DNA of 39,022 nucleotides from an uncultured Candidatus Saccharibacteria bacterium. Lineage in GTDB: Bacteria > Patescibacteriota > Minisyncoccia > Phycocordibacterales > UBA9973. Shown here piece after piece: positions 5,093 to 34,674 of this stretch. The notes beneath the pieces were generated by a model. It did no database searches. It worked only from the letters and a program-made list of their open reading frames with translations, and was not told the origin of the DNA. The stretch lies in NCBI GenBank assembly GCA_964408725.1, contig CAYPAN010000001.1, positions 1 to 39,022 of the forward strand, read 5' to 3'. Both the position numbers and the translations under genes were made by a program. Each line of letters opens with the position of its first letter. Positions within the stretch are counted from its first letter, which is position 1.

Positions 5093-5836
5093 ATGAAACA
5101 AGAAAAAATTTTAATGGGTATGACAATAAAAATAGAAATCAATGACAAAAACGCAAATGAGGAGATTTTTAATAAAATTTTTTCTTATTTTGAAGAAGTA
5201 GACAAAAGATTCAGCACTTACAAGGAAGACAGTGAAATCTCAAAAATAAACCGAGGTGAACTTAAGGCAAACAAATGGAGTTCTGATATGAAAGAAATTT
5301 TCAAGCTTTCGGAAAAAACAAAAAAGGAAACAAACGGATATTTTGATATACAAAGGCCCGATGGAAAATACGACCCATCCGGACTGGTGAAGGGCTGGGC
5401 AATTTGGGAGGCGGCAAATATAATCAAAAAAGAGGGCTATAATGATTTTTATGTTGACGCCGGCGGAGATATTCAGGCTTTCGGAAAAAACGACCAAAAT
5501 GAACCTTGGAAAATAGGCATACGAAATCCTTTCAAGACCGAAGAAATAATAAAAAAACTTTCAATCAAAGACATAGGTGTGGCGACTTCCGGCACTTATG
5601 TGCGAGACCAGCATATTTACAATCCCAAAAACCCAAATGAAAAAATAGAGAATATCGTCAGCTTAACGGTAATAGGTCCAAATGTTTACGAAGCCGACAG
5701 GTTCGCCACAGCGGCTTTCGCTATGGGAAAAAACGGAATATATTTTATAGAAAATCTTCCGGGCTTTGAAGGATATATGGTTGATAAGAATGGAGTCGCA
5801 AAAATGACTTCCGGTTTTGAAAAATACGTAATTTAA
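5093..5836 (+). CDS. apbE: ApbE-family FAD:protein FMN transferase
   Basis: MGMTIKIEI..., SEISKIN, GYFDI, VKGWAIWEA, DAGGDIQAFG, GVATSGTYVRDQHIYNP and EADRFATAAF match the conserved ApbE blocks. No obvious signal peptide or lipobox. Confidence 0.85.
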   Translation: MKQEKILMGMTIKIEINDKNANEEIFNKIFSYFEEVDKRFSTYKEDSEISKINRGELKANKWSSDMKEIFKLSEKTKKETNGYFDIQRPDGKYDPSGLVKGWAIWEAANIIKKEGYNDFYVDAGGDIQAFGKNDQNEPWKIGIRNPFKTEEIIKKLSIKDIGVATSGTYVRDQHIYNPKNPNEKIENIVSLTVIGPNVYEADRFATAAFAMGKNGIYFIENLPGFEGYMVDKNGVAKMTSGFEKYVI

Positions 5837-21656: not shown

Positions 21657-22310
21657 CTAAAAAAGCTTAGATTGCACATCTTCAAATTTTTCCGGCGGGA
21701 TGTATTCCTCATGCTTTGTCTCTTCAAACTCTCTGGCACTGACCTTCAGGAGGGCCGCTGGCAATTTTTTAAAAGTATCTTCAAACATTTTCATCGCTTC
21801 ATTCCCCCGCAATGCGGCAGCAGGATGGAGCATCGGCAGAACAAAAATACTTGCCCGTCCTCCGGCGGGTTTCTCCACTTTAAAAAGTTTGCCCTGGTCG
21901 CGGGTAATCTTTGCCATCGGCAAAAAGTAATTCATAGAGAACCGGCCGAGCGGCACAATTATTTTCGGATTGATAATATCTACCTGCCGCGCCAGGTAAG
22001 GTTTGTATTTCTCGATTTCTTCTTCGTTCGGGTCGCGGTTCTCCGGCGGACGGCGTTTTACAATATTGGTTATGTAAACATCTCCCTCCTGCCAACCCAA
22101 GTCACGAATGTTTTTACGGAGCAGTTGCCCCGCACGCCCGACAAAGGGGCGTTTTTGCATATCTTCGTTGAAACCGGGAGCTTCTCCGATAAAAAGCACC
22201 TCGCAGTCGGTATTACCTTCGCCGAAAACCAGATTGGATTTTTGCAAGGGCAGAGTCTTATCTTTCTCCATTTTCTGCTTCAATTTACCAAGCTCAGATA
22301 TTTTATCCAT
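21657..22310 (-). CDS. Uracil-DNA glycosylase, family 4
   Basis: LVFGEGNTDCEVLFIGEAPGFNED...PFVGRAGQLL (motif A) and the HPAAALR-type motif B. Confidence 0.85.
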   Translation of the reverse strand: MDKISELGKLKQKMEKDKTLPLQKSNLVFGEGNTDCEVLFIGEAPGFNEDMQKRPFVGRAGQLLRKNIRDLGWQEGDVYITNIVKRRPPENRDPNEEEIEKYKPYLARQVDIINPKIIVPLGRFSMNYFLPMAKITRDQGKLFKVEKPAGGRASIFVLPMLHPAAALRGNEAMKMFEDTFKKLPAALLKVSAREFEETKHEEYIPPEKFEDVQSKLF

Positions 22311-22333
22311 CTATAAATTATATCTCTTATTTC

Positions 22334-23548
22334 TTACTTAAGGAAATTCTTGCCGCGCATTTTTCTATGGTAAGCAATGGCAAACCTGTGCGCCTCGCTA
22401 TTTGCAAGTAATATTTCCTTCTTATGTTTTCGGGTAAGTTTTTCATCACCCATAATTGCCTTTGGTTTATGACGTTCGTCTTTCACAACCGAAACAATCG
22501 GAATTGAAAAACCGGCTTTATTTAAGATATATTTGGCAGTGTTTATTTGAGCCATACCGCCATCTACAACAATCAAGTTAGGATAAGGCCATTCTCTATG
22601 CGCCAGACGTCTTTCCAACATTTCTTTTAAGGCACCCGTGTCGTTTGAAACACTCTGCGTCTTTATTTTGAATTTCCTATATTCATTCTTCTCTACCTCC
22701 CCGTTTTCTATAACGACCATAACGCCAACCATATTTCTGCCTGCCATATGCGCGATGTCATACGCCTCAACACGGATACCTCGGCCGAGGGAAGGGCGCA
22801 GGGACGAAAAAATGAAAGGGTTTCCGGTTTCATTTTTTATTAACGCCACATCATTAATATGTTGCAGGGCAAAAAGCTGTCTTTTTATTTCGCCGGCTTT
22901 TTCAAACTCACCCAGTTTAGAATACGCATTCATTTCTTTCTTAAGATTTTTGAAAATCTGCTTTTTTTTGCCTTTAAAAAACAAAATTATATTTTTGATA
23001 TTCTGTAAATACAGTTTTTTATCGTCCAAATCCGGAATCAGGTTTATTTGCCTGTAAAATTCCATATAATTCTTACTTTTTTCGTCTAAAAATGGAAAAA
23101 TCTTTCTTATTATCTTTATAGCCTCGCGAAGTTGGGAACCGTTCGGATAAGGTCCGAATACTTTATAAAATAGAGACGGTTTTAAATTCTTGCCTCGCAC
23201 TATAATCACTTTTGGCAAGTCTTCTCTAGTTATGCAAATATAATTAAAACTTTTATCGGATTTTTCTTTAGTATTGTATTTCGGCTGGTATTTTTTTATA
23301 AGAGAAGCTTCTAATATAAGCGCTTCAAGCACGTTATCTGTCTCTCGCCAGTCTATTTGGGTTGCTTTAAATATTAAATCCACTAAAAGCGGACCCCTGG
23401 TTTCAATTAAATCTTTTCCAAAATAACTTTTTATCCTATCCCTAAGTGATGTCGCTTTGCCAATATATAAAATCTCTTTTCCTTTGAGAAAAAAATACAC
23501 ACCGGGCTTTTGGGGTATTTTAAGTTTTTTGAAATATTTTATATTCAT
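22334..23548 (-). CDS. uvrC: Excinuclease ABC subunit C, short form lacking the C-terminal (HhH)2 domain
   Basis: GIY-YIG (PGVYFFLKGKEILYIGKATSLRDR), a UVR-like helix (EFEKAGEIKRQLFALQHI) and an RNase-H-like endonuclease domain (IEAYDIAH..., VVDGG, EAHRFAIAYHRK). The protein ends at 404 aa, against about 600 aa for E. coli UvrC. Confidence 0.85.
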   Translation of the reverse strand: MNIKYFKKLKIPQKPGVYFFLKGKEILYIGKATSLRDRIKSYFGKDLIETRGPLLVDLIFKATQIDWRETDNVLEALILEASLIKKYQPKYNTKEKSDKSFNYICITREDLPKVIIVRGKNLKPSLFYKVFGPYPNGSQLREAIKIIRKIFPFLDEKSKNYMEFYRQINLIPDLDDKKLYLQNIKNIILFFKGKKKQIFKNLKKEMNAYSKLGEFEKAGEIKRQLFALQHINDVALIKNETGNPFIFSSLRPSLGRGIRVEAYDIAHMAGRNMVGVMVVIENGEVEKNEYRKFKIKTQSVSNDTGALKEMLERRLAHREWPYPNLIVVDGGMAQINTAKYILNKAGFSIPIVSVVKDERHKPKAIMGDEKLTRKHKKEILLANSEAHRFAIAYHRKMRGKNFLK

Positions 23549-23599
23549 GGTTCTATTTTATTACCATGACCCTGAGATTATCGAATGGGTCATAAAAAA

Positions 23600-26194
23600 T
23601 CATTTACGCAGAGCTTTTTTGAGATACTTCCCGGTATAACTCTTCGGACTATTCGCTATTTCTTCAGGCGTGCCTTTGGCTACCAGATTCCCCCCACTTA
23701 CTCCGCCTTCGGGACCAATATCTATAACATAGTCCGAGCTTTTGATAATATCAAGGTTATGTTCAATCAAAACCACAGTATTCCCTTTTGACACAAGCTT
23801 GTTCAGTACTTCAAGAAGCTTCACCACATCGTCATAATGCAGTCCCACTGTCGGTTCATCAAGAAGATAAATAGTCTTTTCCAAATATGGGCGAAAAAGT
23901 TCGCTGGAAATTTTCACCCGCTGGGCTTCTCCGCCGGAAAGTGTGGTTGCCGACTGGCCAAGCTCCAGATAACCCAGACCCACTCCCGAGAGCGTATACA
24001 AGCGGTCATAGATTGCGGGAATATCTTTAAAAAAGATAAGTCCTTCTTCCACGGTCATATGAAGCACTTCATATATATTTTTTTTCTTATATTTTACCGT
24101 CAGTGTTTCTTTGTCAAAACGTTTTCCGTTGCAGACATCGCAAGTAACGTACACGGTGGGCAAAAAGTGCATCTCCACGGCAATTTGACCATTGCCCTCG
24201 CAGGCTTCACAGCGTCCGCCCTTCACATTAAAAGAAAAGCGGTTGGCTTTCCAGCCGCGAAGACGCGCTTCTTCGGTAGTAGCAAATAAATCTCGGATAT
24301 GGGTAAAAGCGCCCGCATAAGTGGCCAAATTTGAGCGCGGAGTCCTGCCTATCGGGGACTGGTCAATCAAAATAGCGCGCGACAAATATTCAGTGCCGGT
24401 AAATGAAGAACAGTTAAAAATTTTCACTGTGCGATATTTGCGTTCATAACGGGCCTGAAGATTTTTATACAAAATTTCATACATAAAAGAACTCTTGCCG
24501 GAACCGGATACCCCGGTAATGGATGTCATTATGCCCAAAGGAACTTCAACATTTAAATTTTTGATGTTGAAAATTTTCCCGCCTGTTATACGCAACGCTC
24601 CTTTTCCGCCCCGGCGTTTTTCCGGCACCGGAATTTTTATTTCTTCGCGAAGATAAGAAAGGGTTCTGGAATTGTTTGTATTCTTTTTTGCGGTTAATAA
24701 TTCTTCCAGCCATCCGGAAACTATAACTTCGCCTCCGTGCACACCAGCCTTCGGGCCTATATCCACTATATAATCGGACGCGTAAATCGTATCCTCATCG
24801 TGTTCAACAATTAAAATGGTGTTGCCTAAATCACGTAGGTTTTCCAATGTTTTAATCAAACGGTCATTATCGCGTTGATGAAGCCCTATAGTCGGCTCAT
24901 CCAAGACATATAAGGCGCCGACTAATCTAGAGCCCAGCTGGGACGCCAGGCGAATGCGTTGGGCTTCTCCGCCGGAGAGAGTATTGGCTTTACGAGAAAG
25001 CTGTAAATAATCGAGTCCAACATCCAACATAAACTGCAAACGCGCTTCTATTTCACGAACAACGGGCAGAGATATTTCCTTTTCCTGGTCCGATAGCTTT
25101 AAAGTTTTGAAAAATTCCGCTGCCTCTATTATTGTAAACGATGATAATTCAAGAATGTTCTTGCGTTTATGCCCGGCACTGATAAAAACATTTAATGCTT
25201 CCGGGCGCAACCGCGCTCCGTGACAAGCATCACAGGGTTCCTCACCCATAAAATATTTTGTGCCCAAGCCATGGCAAACTTCACAGGCACCATACGGAGA
25301 ATTGAAGGAAAAAAGACGCGGTTCAATTTCCGGAAAAGAAAAACCGTCATTCTTGCAGGCAAATTTCGCGGACATTGTGAACTCTTCTTCGGAACCGAAA
25401 GAAACGGCCACTAAACCGTCGGATTCAATGAGCGCCCGCTCCAAGGCTTCCGCTAATCTGGTGCGACTTTCATCTTTGTGGTCATAAAATTCGTGTACTG
25501 CAAAATGGTCAACCAAAATATCAATATTATGCGTTTTGTTCTTGGAAAGAATTATCTGTTCACGCAATTTTTTCATTACTCCATCCAAGCGAATCTCGGA
25601 AAATCCTTTACCAAGCAAATCATAAAGCAATTGATAATATTCCCCTTTACGGCCCCGGACAATGGGAGAGAAAATATTCATTTCGGTTTCATCCCATTCT
25701 ATACCCATTACAGATTTCTTATTTTTCTTGTTCTTTTCAAGCGCTTTTATTTTTTCCAGGACAAAATTCAAAATTTCCTCGTTTGAAAGTTTTTTAATTT
25801 CTTCTCCACATAGAGGGCAGTGAGGATGCCCGATGCGTGCATACATTACGCGCAGGTAATCATATATTTCGGTAATGGTCGCCACCGTAGAACGCGGATT
25901 ATTGGAACGGGATTTTTGGTCAATGGAAATAGCCGGCGAAAGCCCGGTTATTTCGTCCACATCAGGCTTGGGCATTTGATTCAAAAATTGCCGCGCGTAA
26001 GAAGACAAGGATTCCACATACCTCCTCTGCCCTTCGGCAAAAATTGTGTCAAAAGCAAGAGAGGACTTGCCGGAACCCGAAACACCGGTAATGGCTATCA
26101 TACTGTTGCGTGGCATTTCCACATTTATATTCTTCAAATTATGGGTTCTAGCCCCTTTTATCGTTATTTTATCTATATTTTTATCCAATTTCAT
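23600..26194 (-). CDS. uvrA: Excinuclease ABC subunit A
   Basis: Start at ATG 26194 ([23 protein letters not shown]). Two ABC modules (GVSGSGKSS twice, LSGGEAQR twice) and Cys-rich zinc modules ([15 protein letters not shown]...[14 protein letters not shown]...CDVCNG). Confidence 0.95.
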
Positions 26195-26215
26195 AAAAAT
26201 TAAATAATACCAGAA

Positions 26216-26246
26216 CCACACCCGCCGTCGTTCCTAGGGGGTGTGT
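26216..26246 (-). terminator. Possible uvrB terminator hairpin
   Basis: On the minus strand, CACACCC-(about 15 nt)-GGGTGTG is followed by a T-rich tract. The large loop makes this weak. Confidence 0.35.
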
Positions 26247-26304
26247 ATCTATATTAAGATAAGGAGATTATAACACAAAAAGCCAATTTAACAAAAAAGT
26301 TACA

Positions 26305-28617
26305 TCAAATTTTGATTTTTTCTTTTAAAACAACTATCTCGTCACGCAAGATTGCCGCCGTTTCGAAATCCAGCTCTTTTACCGCTTTATTCATCTCCTT
26401 TTCTTTTATTTTTATTATTTTTTCGTAAACTGTTGTATTTCTTTCTTCATCCGAAAGTAAACTGTTTTTTATAGAATCACTTTCGTTTTTCCCTTTATTA
26501 CTTTTATCTCTGGCAAACGCTTTCTTGAACAATTCAACATCAAGTGCCAATTCCGCATTGACCGTTTTCCCGTGTTCGCTTTCCATTTCCTCGGTTATGT
26601 CCTTAATCTTTTTCATAATCGTTTTCGGCGTGATATTGTGTTTTTTATTGTAAGCAATTTGAATATTACGTCGACGGGTGGTCTCTCCTATCGCCCTCTC
26701 CAGTGAACCCGTCATAACGTCCGCGTAAAGAATGACTTTGCCGTATACATTGCGGGCCGCGCGGCCTATGGTCTGGATTAACGAGGTTTCCGAACGCAAA
26801 AATCCTTCTTTGTCGGCGTCCAGTATGCCGATTAATGCCACTTCCGGCAAATCAAGCCCTTCACGCAGAAGATTTACCCCCACTAAAACATCAAAATCGC
26901 CTTTTCTGAATTGCGTCAGAATTTTTATTCTTTCAATCGTCTTTATATCGCTATGCAAGTATTCCGCTTTTATTTTTTTGTCTTTCAAATAAGTGGAAAG
27001 GTCCTCCGCCATTTTTTTGGTGAGTGTCGTGGCAAGAACACGAAAACCCATCTTGATCGTTTTTTCTATTTCCTTAATAAAATCCTGAATCTGACCCGGA
27101 TAAGGCCCAGAGGTATACTCGGAGGAGTATTCGCTGCGGCCAGAACTTTCTTGCCCTTCCAAGATAGAGTGCGAACGACGGAGAGAATTATCCTGAGCAA
27201 GACTTTCCGAAACCGGCCGAACAGAAATCTCCGGGTCAACAAGCCCGGTTGGACGGATAATCTGTTCCACCATTTGTTCGCTTTGAGCGCGTTCCTGGTC
27301 GGAAGGCGTAGCGCTAGTGTATATGACAGGCCCGATTCTTTCACTAAATTCTTCATATTTTAAAGGTCTGTTGTCTTTGGCCGAAGGCAAGCGAAAGCCA
27401 TATTCCACAAGGGTATTTTTGCGGGAAGCATCTCCCGCGTACATACCCTGGAGCTGTGGCAGGGTGACGTGAGATTCGTCTATGACAGTCAAAAAATCAG
27501 GAATATACTCGGAGGAGTATTCGCTACTGCCAGAACTTTCTTGCCCTTCCAAGATAGAGTGCGAGCGACGGAGAGTATGTTCCTGATTTTTTATATGCGG
27601 AAAATAAGAAAGTAATGTTTCCGGCGGTTCGCCTTCTTTTTTGCCGGATAAATGTCTTGAATAATTTTCAATACCGTTGCAATAACCGACTTCACGAATC
27701 ATAGCTAAATCATAATTTGTCCTTCTTTTAATGCGTTCTGCTTCCAATAATTTTCCTTCTTTCTCAAATTTTTTCAATTGGCTCGTTAATTCTTTTTTTA
27801 TCTCCACCAGCGCTTTCTTTTTCTTCACGTCCTCAGTTATAAAATGTTTCACCGGAAAAATAAACAATGGTTCTTCCTCGCCTGCTCCCGACTTGGGAGG
27901 GCGGGCAGGTTTGATAATCTGTGAAGAAATCGGGTCAATTTTTTTAATTTTTGAAATTAATTCATTTTGTATTTCCACCTGATACATTATTTTTTCAGAT
28001 ATGGGCATAATTTCCACCCGAGAACCGATTGAACGGAAAGTTCCCGGATTTAAGTTGGCATTTGTGCGCTCAAAATGAATTTCAATCAATTTTTTCATTA
28101 AAGCCATTCGGCTTATTTTCATACCGATTTTCAATTTCAAATTAACCTTTTCATATTCCACAGGAGACCCCAAGCCGTAAATGCAAGAAACTGATGCCAC
28201 TATTATCACATCACGTCTGGTGAGCAATGCTTCCGTCGTGGCATGACGCAGACGGTCTATTTCTTTATTGATTTGTGCGTCTTTTTCAATGTATGTGTCT
28301 GACGCCGGCATATAAGCCTCCGGCTGATAATAGTCGTAATATGAAACAAAATAATGCACAGCCGCGTCCGGGAAAAATTGCTTAAATTCCTGTGCAAGCT
28401 GGGCGGCCAGAGTTTTATTGTGTGCTATGACAAGCGTCGGCTTATTATATGCGGCTATCACATTAGCCATTGTAAAAGTCTTACCTGTGCCCGTGGCCCC
28501 TATCAATGTTTGTTTTTTCATTCCCTTTTCAAGCCCATTTAGAAGCTCCGAAATAGCCTTGGGTTGATCTCCCGCTGGCTGAAATGGTTTATGTAGTTTA
28601 AAAATATTTTTTGACAA
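26305..28617 (-). CDS. uvrB: Excinuclease ABC subunit B, carrying two in-frame repeat-element insertions
   Basis: Walker A GATGTGKTF, FVSYYDYYQPEAY, motif II VIDESHVT, GFRLPSAKDNRPL, LLREGLDLPEV, QTIGRAARN and a C-terminal UVR domain. It is 770 aa against about 670 aa for typical UvrB. The two inserts of about 33-36 aa account for most of the excess. Confidence 0.95.
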   Translation of the reverse strand: MSKNIFKLHKPFQPAGDQPKAISELLNGLEKGMKKQTLIGATGTGKTFTMANVIAAYNKPTLVIAHNKTLAAQLAQEFKQFFPDAAVHYFVSYYDYYQPEAYMPASDTYIEKDAQINKEIDRLRHATTEALLTRRDVIIVASVSCIYGLGSPVEYEKVNLKLKIGMKISRMALMKKLIEIHFERTNANLNPGTFRSIGSRVEIMPISEKIMYQVEIQNELISKIKKIDPISSQIIKPARPPKSGAGEEEPLFIFPVKHFITEDVKKKKALVEIKKELTSQLKKFEKEGKLLEAERIKRRTNYDLAMIREVGYCNGIENYSRHLSGKKEGEPPETLLSYFPHIKNQEHTLRRSHSILEGQESSGSSEYSSEYIPDFLTVIDESHVTLPQLQGMYAGDASRKNTLVEYGFRLPSAKDNRPLKYEEFSERIGPVIYTSATPSDQERAQSEQMVEQIIRPTGLVDPEISVRPVSESLAQDNSLRRSHSILEGQESSGRSEYSSEYTSGPYPGQIQDFIKEIEKTIKMGFRVLATTLTKKMAEDLSTYLKDKKIKAEYLHSDIKTIERIKILTQFRKGDFDVLVGVNLLREGLDLPEVALIGILDADKEGFLRSETSLIQTIGRAARNVYGKVILYADVMTGSLERAIGETTRRRNIQIAYNKKHNITPKTIMKKIKDITEEMESEHGKTVNAELALDVELFKKAFARDKSNKGKNESDSIKNSLLSDEERNTTVYEKIIKIKEKEMNKAVKELDFETAAILRDEIVVLKEKIKI
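27105..27198 (-). repeat. Hairpin repeat element, copy A (in frame in uvrB, between VRPVSE and GQIQDFIKEI)
   Basis: The 68-nt core at 27118-27185 matches copy B at 65/68 positions and the polA copy at 63/68. It encodes SLRRSHSILEGQESSGRSEYSSE. The flanking arms are only weakly complementary. Confidence 0.85.
27491..27592 (-). repeat. Hairpin repeat element, copy B (in frame in uvrB, 8 codons upstream of the DESH box)
   Basis: The 68-nt core is at 27508-27575. The 20-nt arms at 27491-27510 and 27573-27592 are reverse complements at 19/20 positions. Total length is 102 nt, or 34 codons. Confidence 0.9.
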
Positions 28618-28645
28618 TATTTTATATTAACACTTTTTAGAATTT

Positions 28646-28774
28646 TTATTGAATATCGTAGTAGTTTTCAGGAGAATAAACCTCATATCCTTTCATAATA
28701 ATTATATAAGCAAAGACAGAACTTATTATTGTAAATATAAGCATAAATATGAATGTTTTATTAGTTGCGGACAT
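28646..28774 (-). CDS. Possible 42-aa hydrophobic miniprotein
   Basis: Hand-translated as MSATNKTFIFMLIFTIISSVFAYIIIMKGYEVYSPENYYDIQ. It has one TM-like span, lies just upstream of uvrB, and is below the ORF-track length cutoff. Confidence 0.25.
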   Translation of the reverse strand: MSATNKTFIFMLIFTIISSVFAYIIIMKGYEVYSPENYYDIQ

Positions 28775-28867
28775 AGTTTTAATTATAACATTTATTTATT
28801 TCAAAAAGTAAAAATCTCTTGATTTTTGAGCACATTTCCTATATATTTGAGTTGCTTGTCAAATTTC

Positions 28868-28915
28868 CATAGTTAATGTTTCCGCCCGTAGCTCAGTTGT
28901 AGCGGATTCAACTGA
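28868..28915 (+). pseudogene. Decayed partial duplicate of the tRNA-Lys 5' region
   Basis: CATAGTTAAT (28868-28877) and CCGCCCGTAGCTCAGTTG (28882-28899) are identical to 28942-28951 and 28955-28972 of the intact gene 73-74 nt downstream. The remainder no longer folds as a tRNA. Confidence 0.6.
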
Positions 28916-28954
28916 CTATTTACAAAAAGTTATTAAAACCGCATAGTTAATTAA

Positions 28955-29027
28955 CCGCCCGTAGCTCAGTTGGTAGAGCAGATCCCTTTTAAGGATAAGG
29001 TCGTCGGTCCGATCCCGACCGGGCGGA
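28955..29027 (+). tRNA. tRNA-Lys (anticodon UUU)
   Basis: Hand-folded. Acceptor CCGCCCG/CGGGCGG with discriminator A. D arm GCTC-AGTTGGTA-GAGC. Anticodon arm GATCC-CTTTTAA-GGATA (27:43 G/A mismatch). T arm GTCGG-TCCGATC-CCGAC. Oddities are the C1:G72 pair and a C at T-loop position 55. Confidence 0.8.
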
Positions 29028-29032
29028 CAAAT

Positions 29033-29680
29033 TTAAAAAGCATCCAGTAAAAATTGCTCAAATACAGACTCGGCGTCTTTGCCATCTTTGCGGGCTTCCG
29101 GCAGAAGGTAAGAAAGCTTGCCGGCAAAATTTTCAAGCTCGGAAGAAGTATATTTTCGGAAATCTTTTTTCAGTATCATATCTTTGGTTTTCCAAAACAA
29201 AACACCGGCGAGTTCTTCCAGGGCCACGTCTTTTTCCAAGGCTTGCCTAAAATGAACCCATAAATTAAGCTTATCCCGCTCCCCAAATGCATTGGCCAGC
29301 ATAAAACTGTTAAATCTTTCCTTTTTCTCTTTAGGTAATTCAAGTATACTGATTTTCGCTTTTACTTTTTCAAAAGCATCTAAAATTTCTTTATTTAACT
29401 TTCCTTCTAAAAAAATAAAATCATTACCGGATTCACTTATTATATTCAACTTATTTAAAATAAAATTAAGCGTTTCTTCCTTTTCAAAAATATTTGTAAA
29501 AATTACCGCGCACTTTTTAAAAAACAGTCCAGCGCCGGAGTAAAAACTCTCCGTTTCCATTTCTTTAAAGTCATTTTTGCCGATAAAAAAAGTTTCCGTA
29601 CCGGCTGGCATAGACTTTATTAATTTTTCATAACTCTCGTGTTTATTTTTTGCATCATCTCCACAAAAAAGATAAATCAT
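29033..29680 (-). CDS. DNA polymerase III delta subunit-like protein (short HolA)
   Basis: IYLFCGDD start and a helical C-terminal half (FMLANAFGERDKLNLWVHFRQALEKDVALEELAGVLFWKTKDMI) resemble HolA. It is only 215 aa. Confidence 0.5.
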   Translation of the reverse strand: MIYLFCGDDAKNKHESYEKLIKSMPAGTETFFIGKNDFKEMETESFYSGAGLFFKKCAVIFTNIFEKEETLNFILNKLNIISESGNDFIFLEGKLNKEILDAFEKVKAKISILELPKEKKERFNSFMLANAFGERDKLNLWVHFRQALEKDVALEELAGVLFWKTKDMILKKDFRKYTSSELENFAGKLSYLLPEARKDGKDAESVFEQFLLDAF

Positions 29681-29681
29681 A

Positions 29682-30167
29682 TTAGAGTTTCACTGATTTT
29701 TTATATTCCAAATACGGAGCGCCGTATTTTTCCGCAAGAATTCTTTCTTCTTTTTTGAGAAAGAAAAATTTGGCCACAAAAATTGAAATTATTGAAAAAA
29801 TAACCACAAAGAAAGAATCGGCTACGATGCCAAAACCCAACACTAAAAGAAAAAGTCCAAAATGCGTCGGGCTTCTGGTAAACCTATAAGGCCCGCGGTA
29901 AAATGTCTCCTTGCTTAGGCTCTCCTTCTCCAAATTACGGGAGGATTTTTGTGCCCAAAATACTAAAAGCGTACCGAGAACCAAAAAAACAATGCCAATG
30001 GGCATCAAATCCAGCTTCCCAAAAATTTTAAGGGGAAAAACAAAATCCAAGAGAAGCCCGAGCAAAAAGGAGATAAAAAAACAAAGATACGAATGCGCTA
30101 AAATTTTATGCACTTTATTTTTGTTTTTACCTCCAAATTGTTCTGCTGTAGTTCCTATTTGCATCAT
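29682..30167 (-). CDS. Isoprenylcysteine carboxyl / phospholipid methyltransferase-family membrane protein
   Basis: Four or five TM spans and the YRFTRSPTHFG...L motif of the ICMT/PEMT family, with a C-terminal EERILAEKYGAPYLEYKK. Confidence 0.7.
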   Translation of the reverse strand: MMQIGTTAEQFGGKNKNKVHKILAHSYLCFFISFLLGLLLDFVFPLKIFGKLDLMPIGIVFLVLGTLLVFWAQKSSRNLEKESLSKETFYRGPYRFTRSPTHFGLFLLVLGFGIVADSFFVVIFSIISIFVAKFFFLKKEERILAEKYGAPYLEYKKSVKL

Positions 30168-30191
30168 TTTATAATAGCATATAATGTACCA

Positions 30192-32645
30192 TTATTTAAC
30201 CTCTCCAAAATTATTTCCGGAACCGGAATGTACTAAGAGCGGAATACTAGTTTCATAATGTAAATATGAGCGTTTTAGCACTGTTTGCATAGCATTTTTT
30301 ATCACTTTTCCCGCCTCTTCAAGTACTTTATCTTCCACTTCATAAACTAATTCATCGTGAATTTGAAGCACCAGATGAGCTTTTTCTAAAATATTCGCTT
30401 TTTTCAAGTCTTCTTCCGCGTATCTTATGGCCAGTTTTATAATATCGGCCGTGGCTGTGCCCTGGACTGGCGCGTTTATGGCCGTGCGTTCAGCCATATT
30501 TTTCAAAAATGGAATTCGTGAATTTATATTGGGAAAATATCGGCGCCTGCCGAATAATGTTTCCGTATATGAATGTTTCATAGCAAAAACTTTTACCTCT
30601 TCCAGATAATCCCGCACGCCACTAAATTGATTGAAATAATTGTCGTAAAATTTTTGCGCTTCAGGGCGGGTACCTCCTAAACTTTTACGCAAAGCTGAAA
30701 CCCCCATACCGTAAATAATGCCAAAATTTATCACTTTCGCTTTGCGCCGCATTTCAGCGTCCACCTTATCTATAGGCACGTTAAAAACAAAAGAAGCCAC
30801 TCCGGCGTGAATATCTTTACCTTCACGAAATATTTGCGTCATTTTTTTATCTCCAGAAAGCATCGCCACAACCCGAAGTTCAATCTGGCTGTAGTCAAAA
30901 GCCAAAAGTTTACAGCCTTTTCCGGCTATAAAACCATTCCTTATTTTTTTGCCCAGTTCTGTTTTTATCGGCAAATTCTGCAAGTTTGGGTCTTGGGAAG
31001 AAAATCTGCCGGTCGTTGTGCCATTCTGCAAAAATTTAGCGTGCAGACGACCGTCTTGCGCCACCATTTTGGGAATTACGTCAATATAAGTGGAAAGCAG
31101 TTTTTGCAACTCTCTATAAGACAATATTTCTTTTATGATTGGATTATCTTCTTCCAGTTCTTCCAGCACTGAAACTTTGGTCGAAAAGGAGCCGCTGGCG
31201 CTTTTTTTCTTACTTGATTTCATTCCCATTTTACCGAAAATAACTTCTCCCAATTGTTTAGGTGAATTAATATTAAATTCCGTTCCTGCCATTTTGTAAA
31301 TTTTCCCAGTTAGCTTGTCCAATTCTTTATGGTATTCCTCTGATAAATTTTCAAAATATTTTTTATCTATCAATATGCCATAATCCTGCATTTCTTTTAC
31401 TATGGGCATTATGGGTCTTTCTATTTCTTCATAAACTTTTTCCAGTCCTTTTTCTTTCAATTGCTTAAAAACATACTCTCGCGCTGTTTTAAAATCATTC
31501 GTCTTTCCAAAATGCAAAATGTCTTCCAAAGAGGGATTGGCAATGTCCGAATTTAAGAGCCATAGGGCAATGGAGGTTTCCTGAAGCTCCTTTTCGTCCA
31601 CAGTATGTACCCCTTGATGATTGTTCTCGGAGGAGTATTCGCTGCTACCAGAAATATCTTGCCCTTCCAAGATAGAGTGCGAGCGACGGAGAGAATTATC
31701 ATCAAGGGGTACTTTTTCTTTTTGAAACTTCCCTGCAAAAAAACTTTTCAATCGCGCAAATAAACTTCTAAATTCAAACAAGGAAAAAATATTCTCAATT
31801 TTTTTCAAATCGGCATTCTGCCAAAAAGTATTTTTCGGCAATGTAAAATTTATCGGCGCATCAGTCCTGATTTTGGCCAGAGTTTTGGAAAACAAAGCTT
31901 CTTCCTCGTTGTTTTTTATAAGTTCCAATATTCTTGGAGAAATATCATTTTTAATGAAAATACTTTCGTCTTTTTTTAATTTTTTATAAATTTCTTCTAT
32001 AGTTCCGAAATTAACAATAAGATTGGTGGCTGTTTTTTCACCAATACCCTTTATACCAATAATATTATCCGACGGGTCGCCCCGCAGACCTTTGTAATCC
32101 GGTAAAAGTTTCGGCTTAAATCCAAACCTACCAATCACCTTTTCCTCGTTGTACAAGATAGTGTCATTAATTCCTTTTTTTAATGTATAGACTTGCACTT
32201 TTTCTCCGTCTACCAATTGCATTGTGTCCATATCACCCGAGGCAATAATTATATTTATTTTTTTGTCTTTTTTTAATTCTTCCACTATAGTACCCAGCAC
32301 ATCATCCGCCTCAAAACCCGGAGCATCATAAATAGGAATATTAAACGCCTCAAAAATCTGCCTGGAATTTTTCAGTTGCAGAATAAGAGCATCATCGGTT
32401 TTTGCTCTTCCAGCTTTGTATCCTTCATACGCTTCGTGTCTGAAAGTTTTTTGTGGTAAATCATAACAGGCTACAATATAGTCCGGTTTTAAATCGGTAA
32501 TTATTTTCATCAGCATACTGGTGAGTCCATACAAGGCTCCTGTGGGCTCGCCCTTGGACGATAAAAACTCCGGTAAGGCGTGATAAGCACGATGTATTAT
32601 CGCGTGAGCATCCAGCAACACTAATGTCTTTTTATCTTTCTCCAT
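30192..32645 (-). CDS. polA: DNA polymerase I, carrying one in-frame repeat-element insertion
   Basis: Start at ATG 32645 (MEKDKKTLVLLDAHAIIHRAYHALP, 5'-nuclease domain). Pol A motifs: LLAFDYSQIELRV (A), RRKAKVINFGIIYGM (B), LQIHDELVYEV (C). The upstream 46 codons of the ORF track lack homology and overlap the pilB start. Confidence 0.95.
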   Translation of the reverse strand: MEKDKKTLVLLDAHAIIHRAYHALPEFLSSKGEPTGALYGLTSMLMKIITDLKPDYIVACYDLPQKTFRHEAYEGYKAGRAKTDDALILQLKNSRQIFEAFNIPIYDAPGFEADDVLGTIVEELKKDKKINIIIASGDMDTMQLVDGEKVQVYTLKKGINDTILYNEEKVIGRFGFKPKLLPDYKGLRGDPSDNIIGIKGIGEKTATNLIVNFGTIEEIYKKLKKDESIFIKNDISPRILELIKNNEEEALFSKTLAKIRTDAPINFTLPKNTFWQNADLKKIENIFSLFEFRSLFARLKSFFAGKFQKEKVPLDDNSLRRSHSILEGQDISGSSEYSSENNHQGVHTVDEKELQETSIALWLLNSDIANPSLEDILHFGKTNDFKTAREYVFKQLKEKGLEKVYEEIERPIMPIVKEMQDYGILIDKKYFENLSEEYHKELDKLTGKIYKMAGTEFNINSPKQLGEVIFGKMGMKSSKKKSASGSFSTKVSVLEELEEDNPIIKEILSYRELQKLLSTYIDVIPKMVAQDGRLHAKFLQNGTTTGRFSSQDPNLQNLPIKTELGKKIRNGFIAGKGCKLLAFDYSQIELRVVAMLSGDKKMTQIFREGKDIHAGVASFVFNVPIDKVDAEMRRKAKVINFGIIYGMGVSALRKSLGGTRPEAQKFYDNYFNQFSGVRDYLEEVKVFAMKHSYTETLFGRRRYFPNINSRIPFLKNMAERTAINAPVQGTATADIIKLAIRYAEEDLKKANILEKAHLVLQIHDELVYEVEDKVLEEAGKVIKNAMQTVLKRSYLHYETSIPLLVHSGSGNNFGEVK
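31607..31712 (-). repeat. Hairpin repeat element, polA copy (in frame in the linker after the 5'-nuclease domain)
   Basis: The 68-nt core is at 31626-31693. The 22-nt arms at 31607-31628 and 31691-31712 pair with 20 Watson-Crick pairs and 1 G/T pair out of 22. It encodes VPLDDNSLRRSHSILEGQDISGSSEYSSENNHQGV. Confidence 0.9.
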
Positions 32646-32682
32646 TGTGTAAATTATAGCATTATTGCTATAATTTATAATT

Positions 32683-34380
32683 ATGGCGGACTTTGACGAA
32701 GAAAAACAAAATAAGCAATTGGATGATTTACACAGAGAGGAAGAAGAACAGCTGGTAGCAATGCTGGCGGAATCAAAATACAAGCTTCCTTATATCGACC
32801 TGTCTCGTTTGGGCATAGATAATGAAGCACTTCGAGCAATATCCGAAAAGGATGCCCGTGAACTGAAGGTGGCCCCTTTTAAACTTTTTGGGAAAAATAT
32901 TTTTATAGCGGTACGTTCCCCTTCAGATGACCTTTTGGCAAAACTTAAAGACCAAATAGAGAGAAAGGATTTAATCCCTACTTTTTATATGGTGTCGTTG
33001 GCATCCTTAGAAAAAGTTTGGGGCAGATATAAAGAGTTATCGTTGGCAGAGAGTTCTAAGGTTGGGGGCGTGGACATTTCTGCGGAAGTTTTAAGAGAGG
33101 TGGCAAAAGATATAAAAACAATAAAAGACATAGAAAAATTAATTGCGGATATAAATGAAGGAAATTCGATACACAAAGTTTCACATTTATTGGAAATAAT
33201 ATTAGCCGGAGCGATAGCCATAAAAGCTTCCGATATACATATAGAACCCCAGCAGGAAAAAAGCAGGTTGAGAATTAGATTGGATGGTGTCCTTCACGAT
33301 GTTATATTTTTTGAAAATAATGTTTATCATCTTCTTAACTCGCGAATAAAGCTTCTCTCTGGAATGAAATTAACTTCAACGATAGCGCAGGACGGACGTT
33401 TTAGTATTGTGGAAGAAGCGGAAGAAATAAGCATTCGTTCTTCTATGATTCCCGGGGCATACGGCGAATCAATCGTTATGCGTATTTTGGACCCGAAATC
33501 AATCCAGGTAAAACTTGAAGATTTGGGCATAGAACCTTTTCTATTTTCTATAATAGAAGAGGAAATCGCGAAGCCAAACGGCCTTATATTAGTCACTGGT
33601 CCTACTGGTTCCGGAAAAACGACCACTCTTTACGCATTTTTGAGAAAAATTTATTCTCCGGAAATAAAAATAATAACCATTGAAGACCCGATAGAATATC
33701 ATTTGACAGGCATAACACAGACTCAAACAAATGACGAAAAAGGATACACATTTTTGGAAGGCTTGCGTTCCGGCTTGCGTCAGGACCCAGACGTGGTAAT
33801 GATAGGTGAAATACGAGACGCGGAAACAGCCAAAATCGCCATAGAGGCGGCTCTAACGGGACATATGGTATTTTCTACTTTACACACCAACAATGCGGCC
33901 GGAGTCATTCCGCGTTTGATTGACCTTGATGCCAATCCAAAAATTATGGTTTCGGCTTTATCTCTTTCCATTGCCCAACGTCTAGTGCGCAAGCTTTGTC
34001 CATTTTGTAAAATCGAAAAAGCTCCCGATGAGAAAGAAGCGAAAACTATGAAAATAATAATGGACGGGATAAAAGAAGAAGGTAAAAATCTTTCAAATTA
34101 TAATATAAATCCCGATGCGCCTATTAAATTCTTTTCTCCTGTCGGCTGTGATAAATGCAATGTGACGGGATACAAAGGACGAATAGGTATTTTTGAAGCA
34201 ATTAAAACCGACGAAGCTATAGAAAAAATAATTCCGGAAAATCCAAGCGAGCGTGAAATAAAAAAAATTGCCCGGGCTCAAGGAATCCTTTCTATGCGTC
34301 AAGATGGCATAGTAAAAATATTAAACGGTATTACTTCATTTGAAGAAGTGCAAAGCGTAGTTGACCTGTTGGAGGAATAA
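32683..34380 (+). CDS. pilB: Type IV pilus / type II secretion assembly ATPase (GspE/PilB family)
   Basis: N-terminal GspE_N-like domain, Walker A GPTGSGKTTT, Asp/His boxes (IMIGEIRD, VFSTLHTN) and a tetra-Cys motif (CPFCK...CDKCNVTGYKGR). Confidence 0.9.
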   Translation: MADFDEEKQNKQLDDLHREEEEQLVAMLAESKYKLPYIDLSRLGIDNEALRAISEKDARELKVAPFKLFGKNIFIAVRSPSDDLLAKLKDQIERKDLIPTFYMVSLASLEKVWGRYKELSLAESSKVGGVDISAEVLREVAKDIKTIKDIEKLIADINEGNSIHKVSHLLEIILAGAIAIKASDIHIEPQQEKSRLRIRLDGVLHDVIFFENNVYHLLNSRIKLLSGMKLTSTIAQDGRFSIVEEAEEISIRSSMIPGAYGESIVMRILDPKSIQVKLEDLGIEPFLFSIIEEEIAKPNGLILVTGPTGSGKTTTLYAFLRKIYSPEIKIITIEDPIEYHLTGITQTQTNDEKGYTFLEGLRSGLRQDPDVVMIGEIRDAETAKIAIEAALTGHMVFSTLHTNNAAGVIPRLIDLDANPKIMVSALSLSIAQRLVRKLCPFCKIEKAPDEKEAKTMKIIMDGIKEEGKNLSNYNINPDAPIKFFSPVGCDKCNVTGYKGRIGIFEAIKTDEAIEKIIPENPSEREIKKIARAQGILSMRQDGIVKILNGITSFEEVQSVVDLLEE

Positions 34381-34384
34381 AAAA

Positions 34385-34526
34385 ACACTAATCTCTAAAC
34401 AATCCTTTCAAAACTAAGTTCCGAAAGTAACAAATCATTAAAGGATAGCACCAGCAACTCGTGAGAGCGCCAAAACGTCCTATGCAAACTTGTAGAACCG
34501 GTGGCTGATTGCTTAGAGATTAGTGT
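34385..34526 (+). ncRNA. Unassigned structured element (candidate ncRNA, complex terminator or MITE) closed by a 20-bp stem
   Basis: ACACTAATCTCTAAACAATC (34385-34404) pairs with GATTGCTTAGAGATTAGTGT (34507-34526) at 19/20 positions. The interior contains a GNRA-capped hairpin CTC-GTGA-GAG and further short helices. CTTCTTTTT follows. Confidence 0.4.
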
Positions 34527-34674
34527 CTTCTTTTTAAAAAACAAAAGAGACTTTTAAATCTCTATAAATTAATTATACTATATGGAATATCAGGCAAATG
34601 CTATAATGTGGATAGCACTGTTGATACTCTGTTGATAAATGTACTACTTCTAGAGTATAGCATAATATAAAAAA

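Follow-up and report, generated by a model that had tools for sequence, protein, structure and literature searches.

The stretch of DNA analyzed here (the window, 39,022 nucleotides in full) is contig CAYPAN010000001.1 of assembly GCA_964408725.1, from an uncultured Candidatus Saccharibacteria bacterium. It contains a cluster of DNA repair genes in the order uvrC-uvrA-uvrB...polA, an order that is kept in most related loci, and the nearest relatives of these host genes are found in Candidatus Paceibacterota and Nomurabacteria. Two of the genes carry in-frame copies of a hairpin-forming repeat. Three copies are present in the window, two in uvrB (at sites A and B) and one in polA, all in the same orientation and reading frame, while no copy of the family is found in either uvrC or uvrA of the window. 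Relatives that lack both of the uvrB inserts have a UvrB of approximately 700 amino acids, which is shorter than that of the window (Table 1). The present analysis is centered on the copy at site B of uvrB (copy B), to which an earlier note on this DNA had drawn attention.

The two arms of copy B, AAAAAATCAGGAATATACTC and GAGTATGTTCCTGATTTTTT on the + strand, are complementary at 19 of 20 positions and are separated by 62 nt, as had been described, and direct reading of the sequence confirms that the only non-Watson-Crick pair of the stem is T27504 opposite G27579. The core enclosed by the arms has a hairpin (CTTG-CCCTTC-CAAG) at its apex, an inner helix (TTCGC/GCGAA) and a hypervariable patch of approximately 10-16 nt. 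It is translated on the - strand as (L)RRSHSILEGQESSGSSEYSS, and the reading across the whole copy in the uvrB frame is LLSYFP-HIKNQEHTLRRSHSILEGQESSGSSEYSSEYI-PDFLTVIDESHVT. Folded as RNA, the gene strand has a predicted energy of -35.4 kcal/mol (z = -4.6) and the + strand one of -40.6 kcal/mol (z = -5.5), with none of 200 shuffled sequences being equally stable. Comparison with UvrB of B. caldotenax (2fdc_A) places the copy between P330 and D332-FLIIVDESH, where residues 341-373 of the window protein (HIKNQ...SEYIP, 33 amino acids) replace the single D331, which agrees with the approximately 32 residues that had been considered to have no counterpart. The 102 nt (34 codons) previously assigned to the insert hold for the span of the hairpin; the insert itself amounts to a net 32 codons (96 nt) when compared with empty-site relatives.

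The family was traced through DNA k-mers of the core, with a 20-mer in GTDB representative genomes and a 21-mer in metagenomes. The loci obtained in this way are designated L001 to L037, and conservation of the core within the searched 21-mer is in these loci given by construction. The 20-mer retrieved ten loci, all with titles that refer to Nomurabacteria, Paceibacterota, Patescibacteria or an uncultured bacterium except for one metagenome-assembled genome of an uncultured Saccharibacteria, and the 21-mer retrieved 27 metagenome loci. In the window and the 37 fetched loci together, nhmmer identified 47 copies. Nearly all of them occupy one strand and one phase of long open reading frames (ORFs), and the host frame stays open across every copy. 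The host spectrum was taken from the DNA k-mer scans because a search at the peptide level, made with doubled peptide rows, gave no match at E <= 0.01. According to Pfam, the host genes encode UvrA (two sites), UvrB (two sites), UvrC, PolA, a CCA-adding enzyme, a class I aminoacyl-tRNA synthetase and CarA. Copies recur at orthologous sites in uvrA, uvrB, uvrC and polA, and 27 of the 37 k-mer loci lie within the conserved uvrC-uvrA-uvrB...polA cluster. One of the open frames that contain the element (L023, 5410-9534, 1375 amino acids) combines a class I aminoacyl-tRNA synthetase with a histidine-phosphatase domain, which either interrupts the synthetase or is fused to it, followed by an HD domain.

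Of the 118 most closely related distinct UvrB proteins, 55 have the family at site B and 41 at site A; 16 and 31, respectively, bear other inserts there, and the remainder are short or empty. Partly deleted alleles are also present in this set. Three core patterns (apex, left half and right half) gave no match in viral contigs, and nothing suggests that a phage is the vector of the family. With Rfam, only two tRNAs were retrieved at the gathering threshold, and relaxing the limit to E values up to 10 for positions 27050-27650 gave only a chance match to a long non-coding RNA. No description of the family was found in the literature on the Candidate Phyla Radiation (CPR)/Patescibacteria, the coverage of which was incomplete, so that this is not a proof of novelty.

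The boundary between host and inserted sequence can be set by the empty-site relatives of copy B, which read YFP-K-DFL, YFK-K-DFL, YFK-T-DFL or YFP-S-DFL; in locus L038 the DNA of the empty site is TAT TTT CCA AAA GAT TTT CTT. Given that these relatives carry D-F-L, the codons for these residues (27490-27498, with 27491-27498, GAT TTT TT, inside the stem as its outer 8 nt) belong to the host. The earlier note had placed P-D-F-L at 27490-27501 and considered all four codons to be of host origin. The position is correct, and so is the origin for D-F-L, but the P codon matches the consensus of the element arms (TnAGGAnTATnCTC / GAGnATnnTCCTnA, 11-14 nt), which is common to copies in unrelated genes. 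Because this consensus recurs at unrelated sites, the P codon and the following GA are counted as element-borne. The match extends over positions 27499-27510 of the left arm (codons for P, I, Y and E). For this reason, the 11 bp of host-derived stem that had been proposed cannot be maintained: the host supplies 6-8 bp, and the P codon together with CCTGA matches the arm consensus. On the opposite side, the host D-F-L codons are mirrored, as their reverse complement, by positions 27585-27592, which encode the new residues K-N; this corroborates the view that the complement of host codons within the stem is translated as non-homologous sequence. The empty alleles of L024 and L033 already read AAAAAA-GA-TTTT, and part of the outer A/T pairing at copy B may pre-date the insertion. 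At site B of L042 there is a tandem duplication (S-D-F-F-T / P-D-F-L-T), in which the hairpin arm is a separate copy located just before the true host P-D-F-L-T codons.

Complementarity between an arm and the host flank is not restricted to copy B, as it is also present at site A in L001, L004 and L034; the second refuting condition of the earlier note, namely that no other copy would show it, therefore does not hold. The case at site A is cleaner than that of copy B. In L001 and L004, the stem (GAATCTGCCCGGGATAGTACTC / GAGCACTATCCCGGGCAGATTC, 21 of 22 positions paired) covers the invariant host G-Q-I codons, and empty alleles of site A have nothing complementary to these codons upstream. In L034, the insertion is a few codons away and the host S-E-G codons are in the opposite arm, with the host K of YKGQ retained. 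Direct target duplication is absent: the longest direct repeat flanking the hairpins averages 1.2 nt, compared with 1.17 nt for a null in which the flanks were re-paired randomly.

Pairing in the stem was evaluated for 29 distinct copies cut at fixed distances from the core, which gave a gap-free MAFFT alignment of 112 columns. Columns 6-25 pair with columns 88-107 in at least 25 of the 29 copies, the exceptions being 18/95 (24/29) and 19/94 (23/29), and beyond the edge of the stem pairing falls to 20, 15 and 7 of 29 over the next three columns, i.e., to background. Standard pairs occupy 82.8% of the stem cells, compared with 55% after shuffling and 39-49% when the partners are slid, the covariation score is 0.741 versus 0.214, and all four Watson-Crick types occur at most stem positions. 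Copy by copy, the stem length clusters at 20-22 bp, and the hairpin copies have RNA fold z values of -4.6 to -6.5. The inner arms (11-14 nt) show approximately 50-60% consensus among copies; the outer 6-10 bp have no consensus and are specific to each site, yet they are paired. In the polA copy, a stem of 22 bp (31607-31628 / 31691-31712, with 20 Watson-Crick pairs, one G:T and one mismatch) is formed by arms whose sequence differs from that of copy B.

In L047, a much diverged and GC-richer relative that was found by protein and not by k-mer, the stem (AAAAAGTCGGGCACACTCTC / GAGAGTGTGCCCGACTTTTT) is nevertheless paired at 20 of 20 positions. The host D codon is here GAC instead of GAT, a synonymous difference, and the opposite arm has changed to match, with its own amino acids being altered. 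The fact that the stem follows the change in the host codon indicates that arm complementarity is maintained continuously and was not only made at insertion. Fold-back or template-switch synthesis at the time of insertion, or else selection for a longer hairpin, had been suggested from the mirrored flank; the mirrored flank itself stands, while its creation solely at insertion does not agree with the stem of L047. In L036, an identical extra 9 nt is found in each arm. Both this symmetric difference and the many paired differences of L047 are seen as differences between loci.

In the part of the core outside the searched 21-mer, the three codon positions have, in order, entropies of 0.62, 0.66 and 0.61, and thus there is no codon periodicity. 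The copies in the CCA-adding enzyme form a subfamily with one additional nucleotide, which shifts the second half of the core into another frame, and at this same site L017 (5521-5592) carries the core in the opposite orientation, read as SCPSKIECERRR, within a 23-bp stem. This inverted copy indicates that the core can flip between its inverted arms. Given the lack of periodicity, the frame-shifted copies and the flipped one, the conservation of the core is not at the level of the peptide; it is at the level of nucleotides, and the encoded peptide is a by-product. Between species, flanking uvrB has a third-codon-position identity of 0.50-0.61, compared with 0.69-0.88 for the core outside the searched 21-mer. 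RNAalifold adds inner pairs within the core, of which 32:81 shows a clear double change (GC in 20 copies, AU in 9). Core identity is higher between copies of one genome (0.915) than between copies that occupy the same site in different genomes (0.824; Mann-Whitney p = 0.0005), and the hypervariable patch is often common to paralogues, as in copies A and B of the window and in the uvrB and polA copies of L005.

Not all copies have preserved the hairpin. A 12-nt insertion in one arm has abolished the stem of copy A in the window (fold z = 0.13), in L045 the core is deleted and the stem that surrounds it still measures 12 bp, and in L044 there is a short loop with no hairpin. Unrelated inserts at both uvrB sites and in polA are hairpins too, with stems of 18-30 bp and loops of 4 to 84 nt (Table 1), and the geometry and the sites are common to several unrelated core families (L019 polA, L034 site B and L008 site A). 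These sites act as hot spots at which in-frame hairpin inserts of a broader class are found. Site A of uvrB in L006 also contains an unrelated hairpin insert.

Table 1. Location of the host genes and of the repeat copies in the window, and dimensions of unrelated hairpins found at the same sites in other loci.
Feature	Coordinates	Strand	Stem (bp)	Loop (nt)	Remarks
uvrC + uvrA	22334..26221	-			Remaining part of the conserved uvrC-uvrA-uvrB...polA cluster
uvrB host gene	26305..28617	-			770 amino acids; UvrB by homology (including 2fdc_A)
polA host gene	30192..32783	-			Open frame as listed; true start probably near 32648
uvrB copy A	27096..27207	+ coordinates			Junction VRPVSE / YPGQIQDF; core 27121-27182, 95% identical to copy B
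uvrB copy B, left arm (+ strand), 3' arm in uvrB direction	27491..27510	+			27491-27498 are host codons (D, F, two bases of L)
uvrB copy B, core	27511..27572	+			Conserved, 62 nt
uvrB copy B, right arm (+ strand), 5' arm in uvrB direction	27573..27592	+			New residues K-N-Q-E-H-T
polA copy	31607..31712	+ coordinates			Linker after the 5'-nuclease domain; core 31629-31690 (same 62 nt)
Unrelated hairpin, L004 uvrB site B			20	22	
Unrelated hairpin, L034 uvrB site B			18	84	
Unrelated hairpin, L005 uvrB site A			18	4	
Unrelated hairpin, L008 uvrB site A			30	58	
Unrelated hairpin, L019 polA linker			18	63	

At the protein level, the AlphaFold model of UvrB, obtained with 91 UvrB sequences, is mediocre (mean predicted local distance difference test score, pLDDT, of 63). 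Both inserts (residues 347-369 and 472-503) are modeled as coil with pLDDT below 50, and they are predicted to be disordered loops. The comparison with 2fdc_A shows that site B immediately precedes the strand that bears motif II and that site A is located at VRPT/KGQIDD. UvrB of the window has a third extra segment relative to B. caldotenax, the 10 residues PARPPKSGAG (residues 236-245, 27883-27912), which is GC-rich within an AT-rich gene and contains a small hairpin (CTCCC...GGGAG); this segment may be the remnant of another hairpin insertion.

The complete repair cluster spans 21657-32783 on the - strand and contains UDG, uvrC, uvrA, uvrB, a tRNA-Lys (on the + strand), two small ORFs and polA. 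The UvrC ORF (22334-23548) has just 404 amino acids, with an RNase H endonuclease domain and a UVR motif found by Pfam at E <= 1e-5; the GIY-YIG nuclease domain was not found at this threshold. GC skew in the window tracks gene orientation, and the replication strand was therefore not read from it. Three other inverted repeats were observed. An intergenic one at 34376-34535, between a gene for a PilB/T2SSE-like ATPase and ruvB, has 29-nt arms that are 86% complementary and 102 nt apart, and the 171 nt around it (34370-34540) fold with -41 kcal/mol and have no Rfam match at the gathering threshold. Another, at 5096-5190, lies within the first 33 codons of ORF 5093-5836; its 18-nt arms are 94% complementary and 59 nt apart, and it is AT-rich, with a weak fold (-12 kcal/mol). 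ORF 360-1847 is directly followed, beyond its stop codon, by a perfect palindrome (1848-1898; 25 bp, loop of 1 nt) that looks like a bidirectional terminator.

Copy B is probably a member of a dispersed and non-autonomous family of palindromic repeats of Paceibacteria/Nomurabacteria, which resembles the Rickettsia palindromic elements (RPE), is translated through, and has its stem kept and extended by template switching. The mechanism of template switching and the route of spread are what we infer from the observations above. The family would insert into predicted surface loops of housekeeping genes, where it would be translated together with the host protein. Intra-hairpin template switching during replication, i.e., quasipalindrome correction, would then keep and lengthen the stem, by copying one arm and some of the adjoining host flank onto the other arm as a reverse complement. 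The free arm is observed to follow changes of the constrained one. Cores would be exchanged between nearby copies by gene conversion or by template switching between hairpins, and the concentration of the family in the 10-kb uvrC-uvrA-uvrB-polA cluster would follow from such exchange among nearby copies. Flipped or frame-shifted copies would gain a stop codon and be lost, leaving uniform orientation and frame. Indeed, direct reading of the sequence shows that a flip of the core in its usual phase creates an in-frame TAG, from which a uniform core orientation would follow.

Several points weigh against this interpretation. Mobility is deduced from distribution only, given that no mobilizing enzyme, donor or intermediate has been seen, and the copy in L021, the sole copy seen without a long ORF across it, is probably intergenic. 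Template switching alone does not predict the sharp limit of 20-22 bp, and perfect stems that are long retained in diverged lineages could equally be the outcome of selection for function. On the strand antisense to the genes, G:T cells outnumber A:C cells by 27 to 10 in the stem (p = 0.008) and by 44 to 14 when the core pairs are included, with the cells being non-independent in both counts, and a neutral process does not obviously predict this bias. Given that the folding energies of the two strands (RNAfold) are not significantly different (-42.3 versus -41.8 kcal/mol, p = 0.18-0.29), this asymmetry of wobble pairs is only suggestive. The concentration in excision-repair genes, to which 27 of the 37 k-mer loci belong, could likewise be a matter of function and not of local spread. 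Because the stem-length limit, the wobble bias and this concentration are not explained, a functional or guide-like role stays alive, in which the hairpin would be a structured signal for the host. It would act as RNA, or as single-stranded DNA of the antisense strand, that is bound or cut by a factor requiring approximately two helical turns plus the core, with an RNase III-type enzyme as a candidate and co-regulation of uvrC-uvrA-uvrB-polA as the function. Together with the biased wobble pairs and the preference for excision-repair genes, such a role is favored by stems of 20-22 bp at every site whatever their sequence, by compensatory changes that override the encoded peptide, by the nucleotide-level constraint on the core and the covariation of its pairs (32:81, GC in 20 and AU in 9), and by a hypervariable patch that tends to be genome-specific. 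Nonetheless, it is unlikely, given that copy A of the window has no stem while uvrB is intact, that in many close relatives the sites are empty or have been deleted in part, and that unrelated hairpin families are found at the same sites. The presence of copies in carA, an aminoacyl-tRNA synthetase and a CCA-adding enzyme, the lack of an Rfam match and the similar folding energies of the two strands also speak against it.

The remaining explanations have less to recommend them. The stem could have been made in one step at integration, if the mobile unit were the core with short inner arms and fold-back or snap-back priming copied approximately 8-10 nt of the target flank in inverted form, fixing the length at approximately 21 bp. 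This would account for outer arms that are site-specific and have host codons on one side only, the side differing between insertions at site A (L004 versus L034), as well as for the uniform total length of the stem, the absence of direct target duplication, and the existence, at these very sites, of core-less hairpins whose stems have 18-20 bp (L005 site A and L004 site B). However, stems track later changes of host codons (L047), so that a process acting after insertion is needed anyway, occupied alleles of site B share the junction residues H-I outside the hairpin, which points to one old insertion and not to repeated new ones, and some empty sites of the host already read AAAAAA-GA-TTTT. 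We know of no enzyme that copies a flank in inverted form in one step at integration, and none was seen in this analysis. This explanation is rather improbable. An ordinary MITE (a miniature transposable element with inverted repeats), moved by cut-and-paste with fixed terminal inverted repeats and a DDE transposase, would be in line with the small size, the many copies and the weak arm consensus of 11-14 nt. It was rejected given that target-site duplication is absent, and it is made very improbable also by the outer 6-10 bp of the stem, which differ at every site, by the lack of matches in viral contigs, and by the Pfam scan of 10 window ORFs, which revealed neither a transposase nor an autonomous partner insertion sequence (approximately 25 other window ORFs being outside the scan). 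Least credible of all is a functional peptide module (RRSHSILEGQ..SSEYSSE) on repair proteins, for example a docking or phosphorylation motif. The same peptide does occur in UvrA, UvrB, UvrC and PolA, always in one frame, but its variability has no codon-position periodicity, the subfamily in the CCA-adding enzyme reads half of the core in another frame, and L017 reads the opposite strand; for these three reasons it was rejected. In addition, the arms alter amino acids so as to keep pairing, the segment is predicted to be disordered, and the uniform orientation is more simply explained by the in-frame TAG that arises when the core is flipped.

Some hairpin MITEs of the Correia/NEMIS/ERIC type are substrates of RNase III. 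Like the CPR element, Correia/NEMIS and ERIC have approximately 100-150 bp and form long RNA hairpins. They differ in having fixed terminal inverted repeats, a target duplication of TA or similar and mostly intergenic positions, whereas the CPR element has no duplication, variable arms and copies almost all inside genes. The attC sites of integrons are recombination sites that are recognized as a folded single strand, in which structure and length matter, most of the sequence is free, and one strand is active. They are comparable to the CPR element as folded-strand sites where structure and length count and sequence is largely free, but attC has conserved ends and a variable center, which is the reverse of the arrangement found here, and it occurs in cassette arrays beside an integrase; neither an integrase nor a cassette array was seen for the CPR element in this analysis. 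With respect to process, perfect stems have been documented to arise and to be restored through template switching (Monttinen and Loytynoja 2022, PMC8794818). Quasipalindrome or template-switch mutation (Ripley; PMC8794818) gives reverse-complement copies of neighboring sequence, perfect stems in one event and multi-base compensatory changes, and these products correspond to what is found here, namely the mirroring of host flank, the 9-nt difference that is symmetric in L036, and perfect stems in diverged copies. In the present family, pre-existing host codons (D-F-L, G-Q-I or S-E-G) form part of one arm, as the empty-site relatives show, and are copied in reverse complement by the other. Quasipalindrome mutation is, however, a process and not an element, and it leaves both the conserved mobile core and the sharp stem limit without explanation.

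By kind, the nearest analogues are the Rickettsia elements and the coding palindromes of Nematomorpha (PMC6649704). In-frame palindromic elements are documented in Rickettsia (PMC10969869), and both these and the CPR family are dispersed palindromic repeats of approximately 100-150 bp. Each lies in frame within housekeeping genes that are unrelated to one another and belong to a reduced genome, each adds a conserved peptide to the protein at a loop where extra residues are tolerated, and in both cases it is not known how insertion takes place (PMC10969869). The CPR family is likewise a dispersed repeat with a long hairpin that is inserted in frame in unrelated genes with a conserved extra peptide. 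It occurs in a CPR phylum and is likened to RPE by kind, with strict family membership not being claimed. Its arms are not fixed, having a consensus of approximately 11-14 nt only and an outer stem that is site-specific and consists partly of host codons, and it is further set apart by the fixed stem of 20-22 bp, the homogenization of cores within a genome and the concentration in one repair-gene cluster. [quoted passage not shown]

A more speculative possibility, to which we attach a low probability, is that the hairpins represent an undescribed class of CPR element, in which interchangeable cores of approximately 60 nt are mounted on a duplex of measured length (approximately two helical turns) built from the target gene's own sequence. 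If this were true, either integration or maintenance would make inverted target duplications, or the hairpin would be guide-like or of the RNase III type on the strand antisense to the repair genes.

Selfish DNA within protein-coding genes has so far been best known from Rickettsia; with this family the phenomenon extends to the Candidate Phyla Radiation, where more than half of the closest UvrB relatives are affected. The inserts inflate and distort alignments of CPR proteins and can be mistaken for lineage-specific domains. They also offer a clean natural case in which a DNA/RNA hairpin and an essential coding frame co-evolve, with the free arm following synonymous changes of host codons, and this makes the contribution of template switching versus selection to stem upkeep directly testable. 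With the family concentrated in uvrA, uvrB, uvrC and polA, it may be asked whether the element targets repair genes, finds a safe haven in them, or regulates them.

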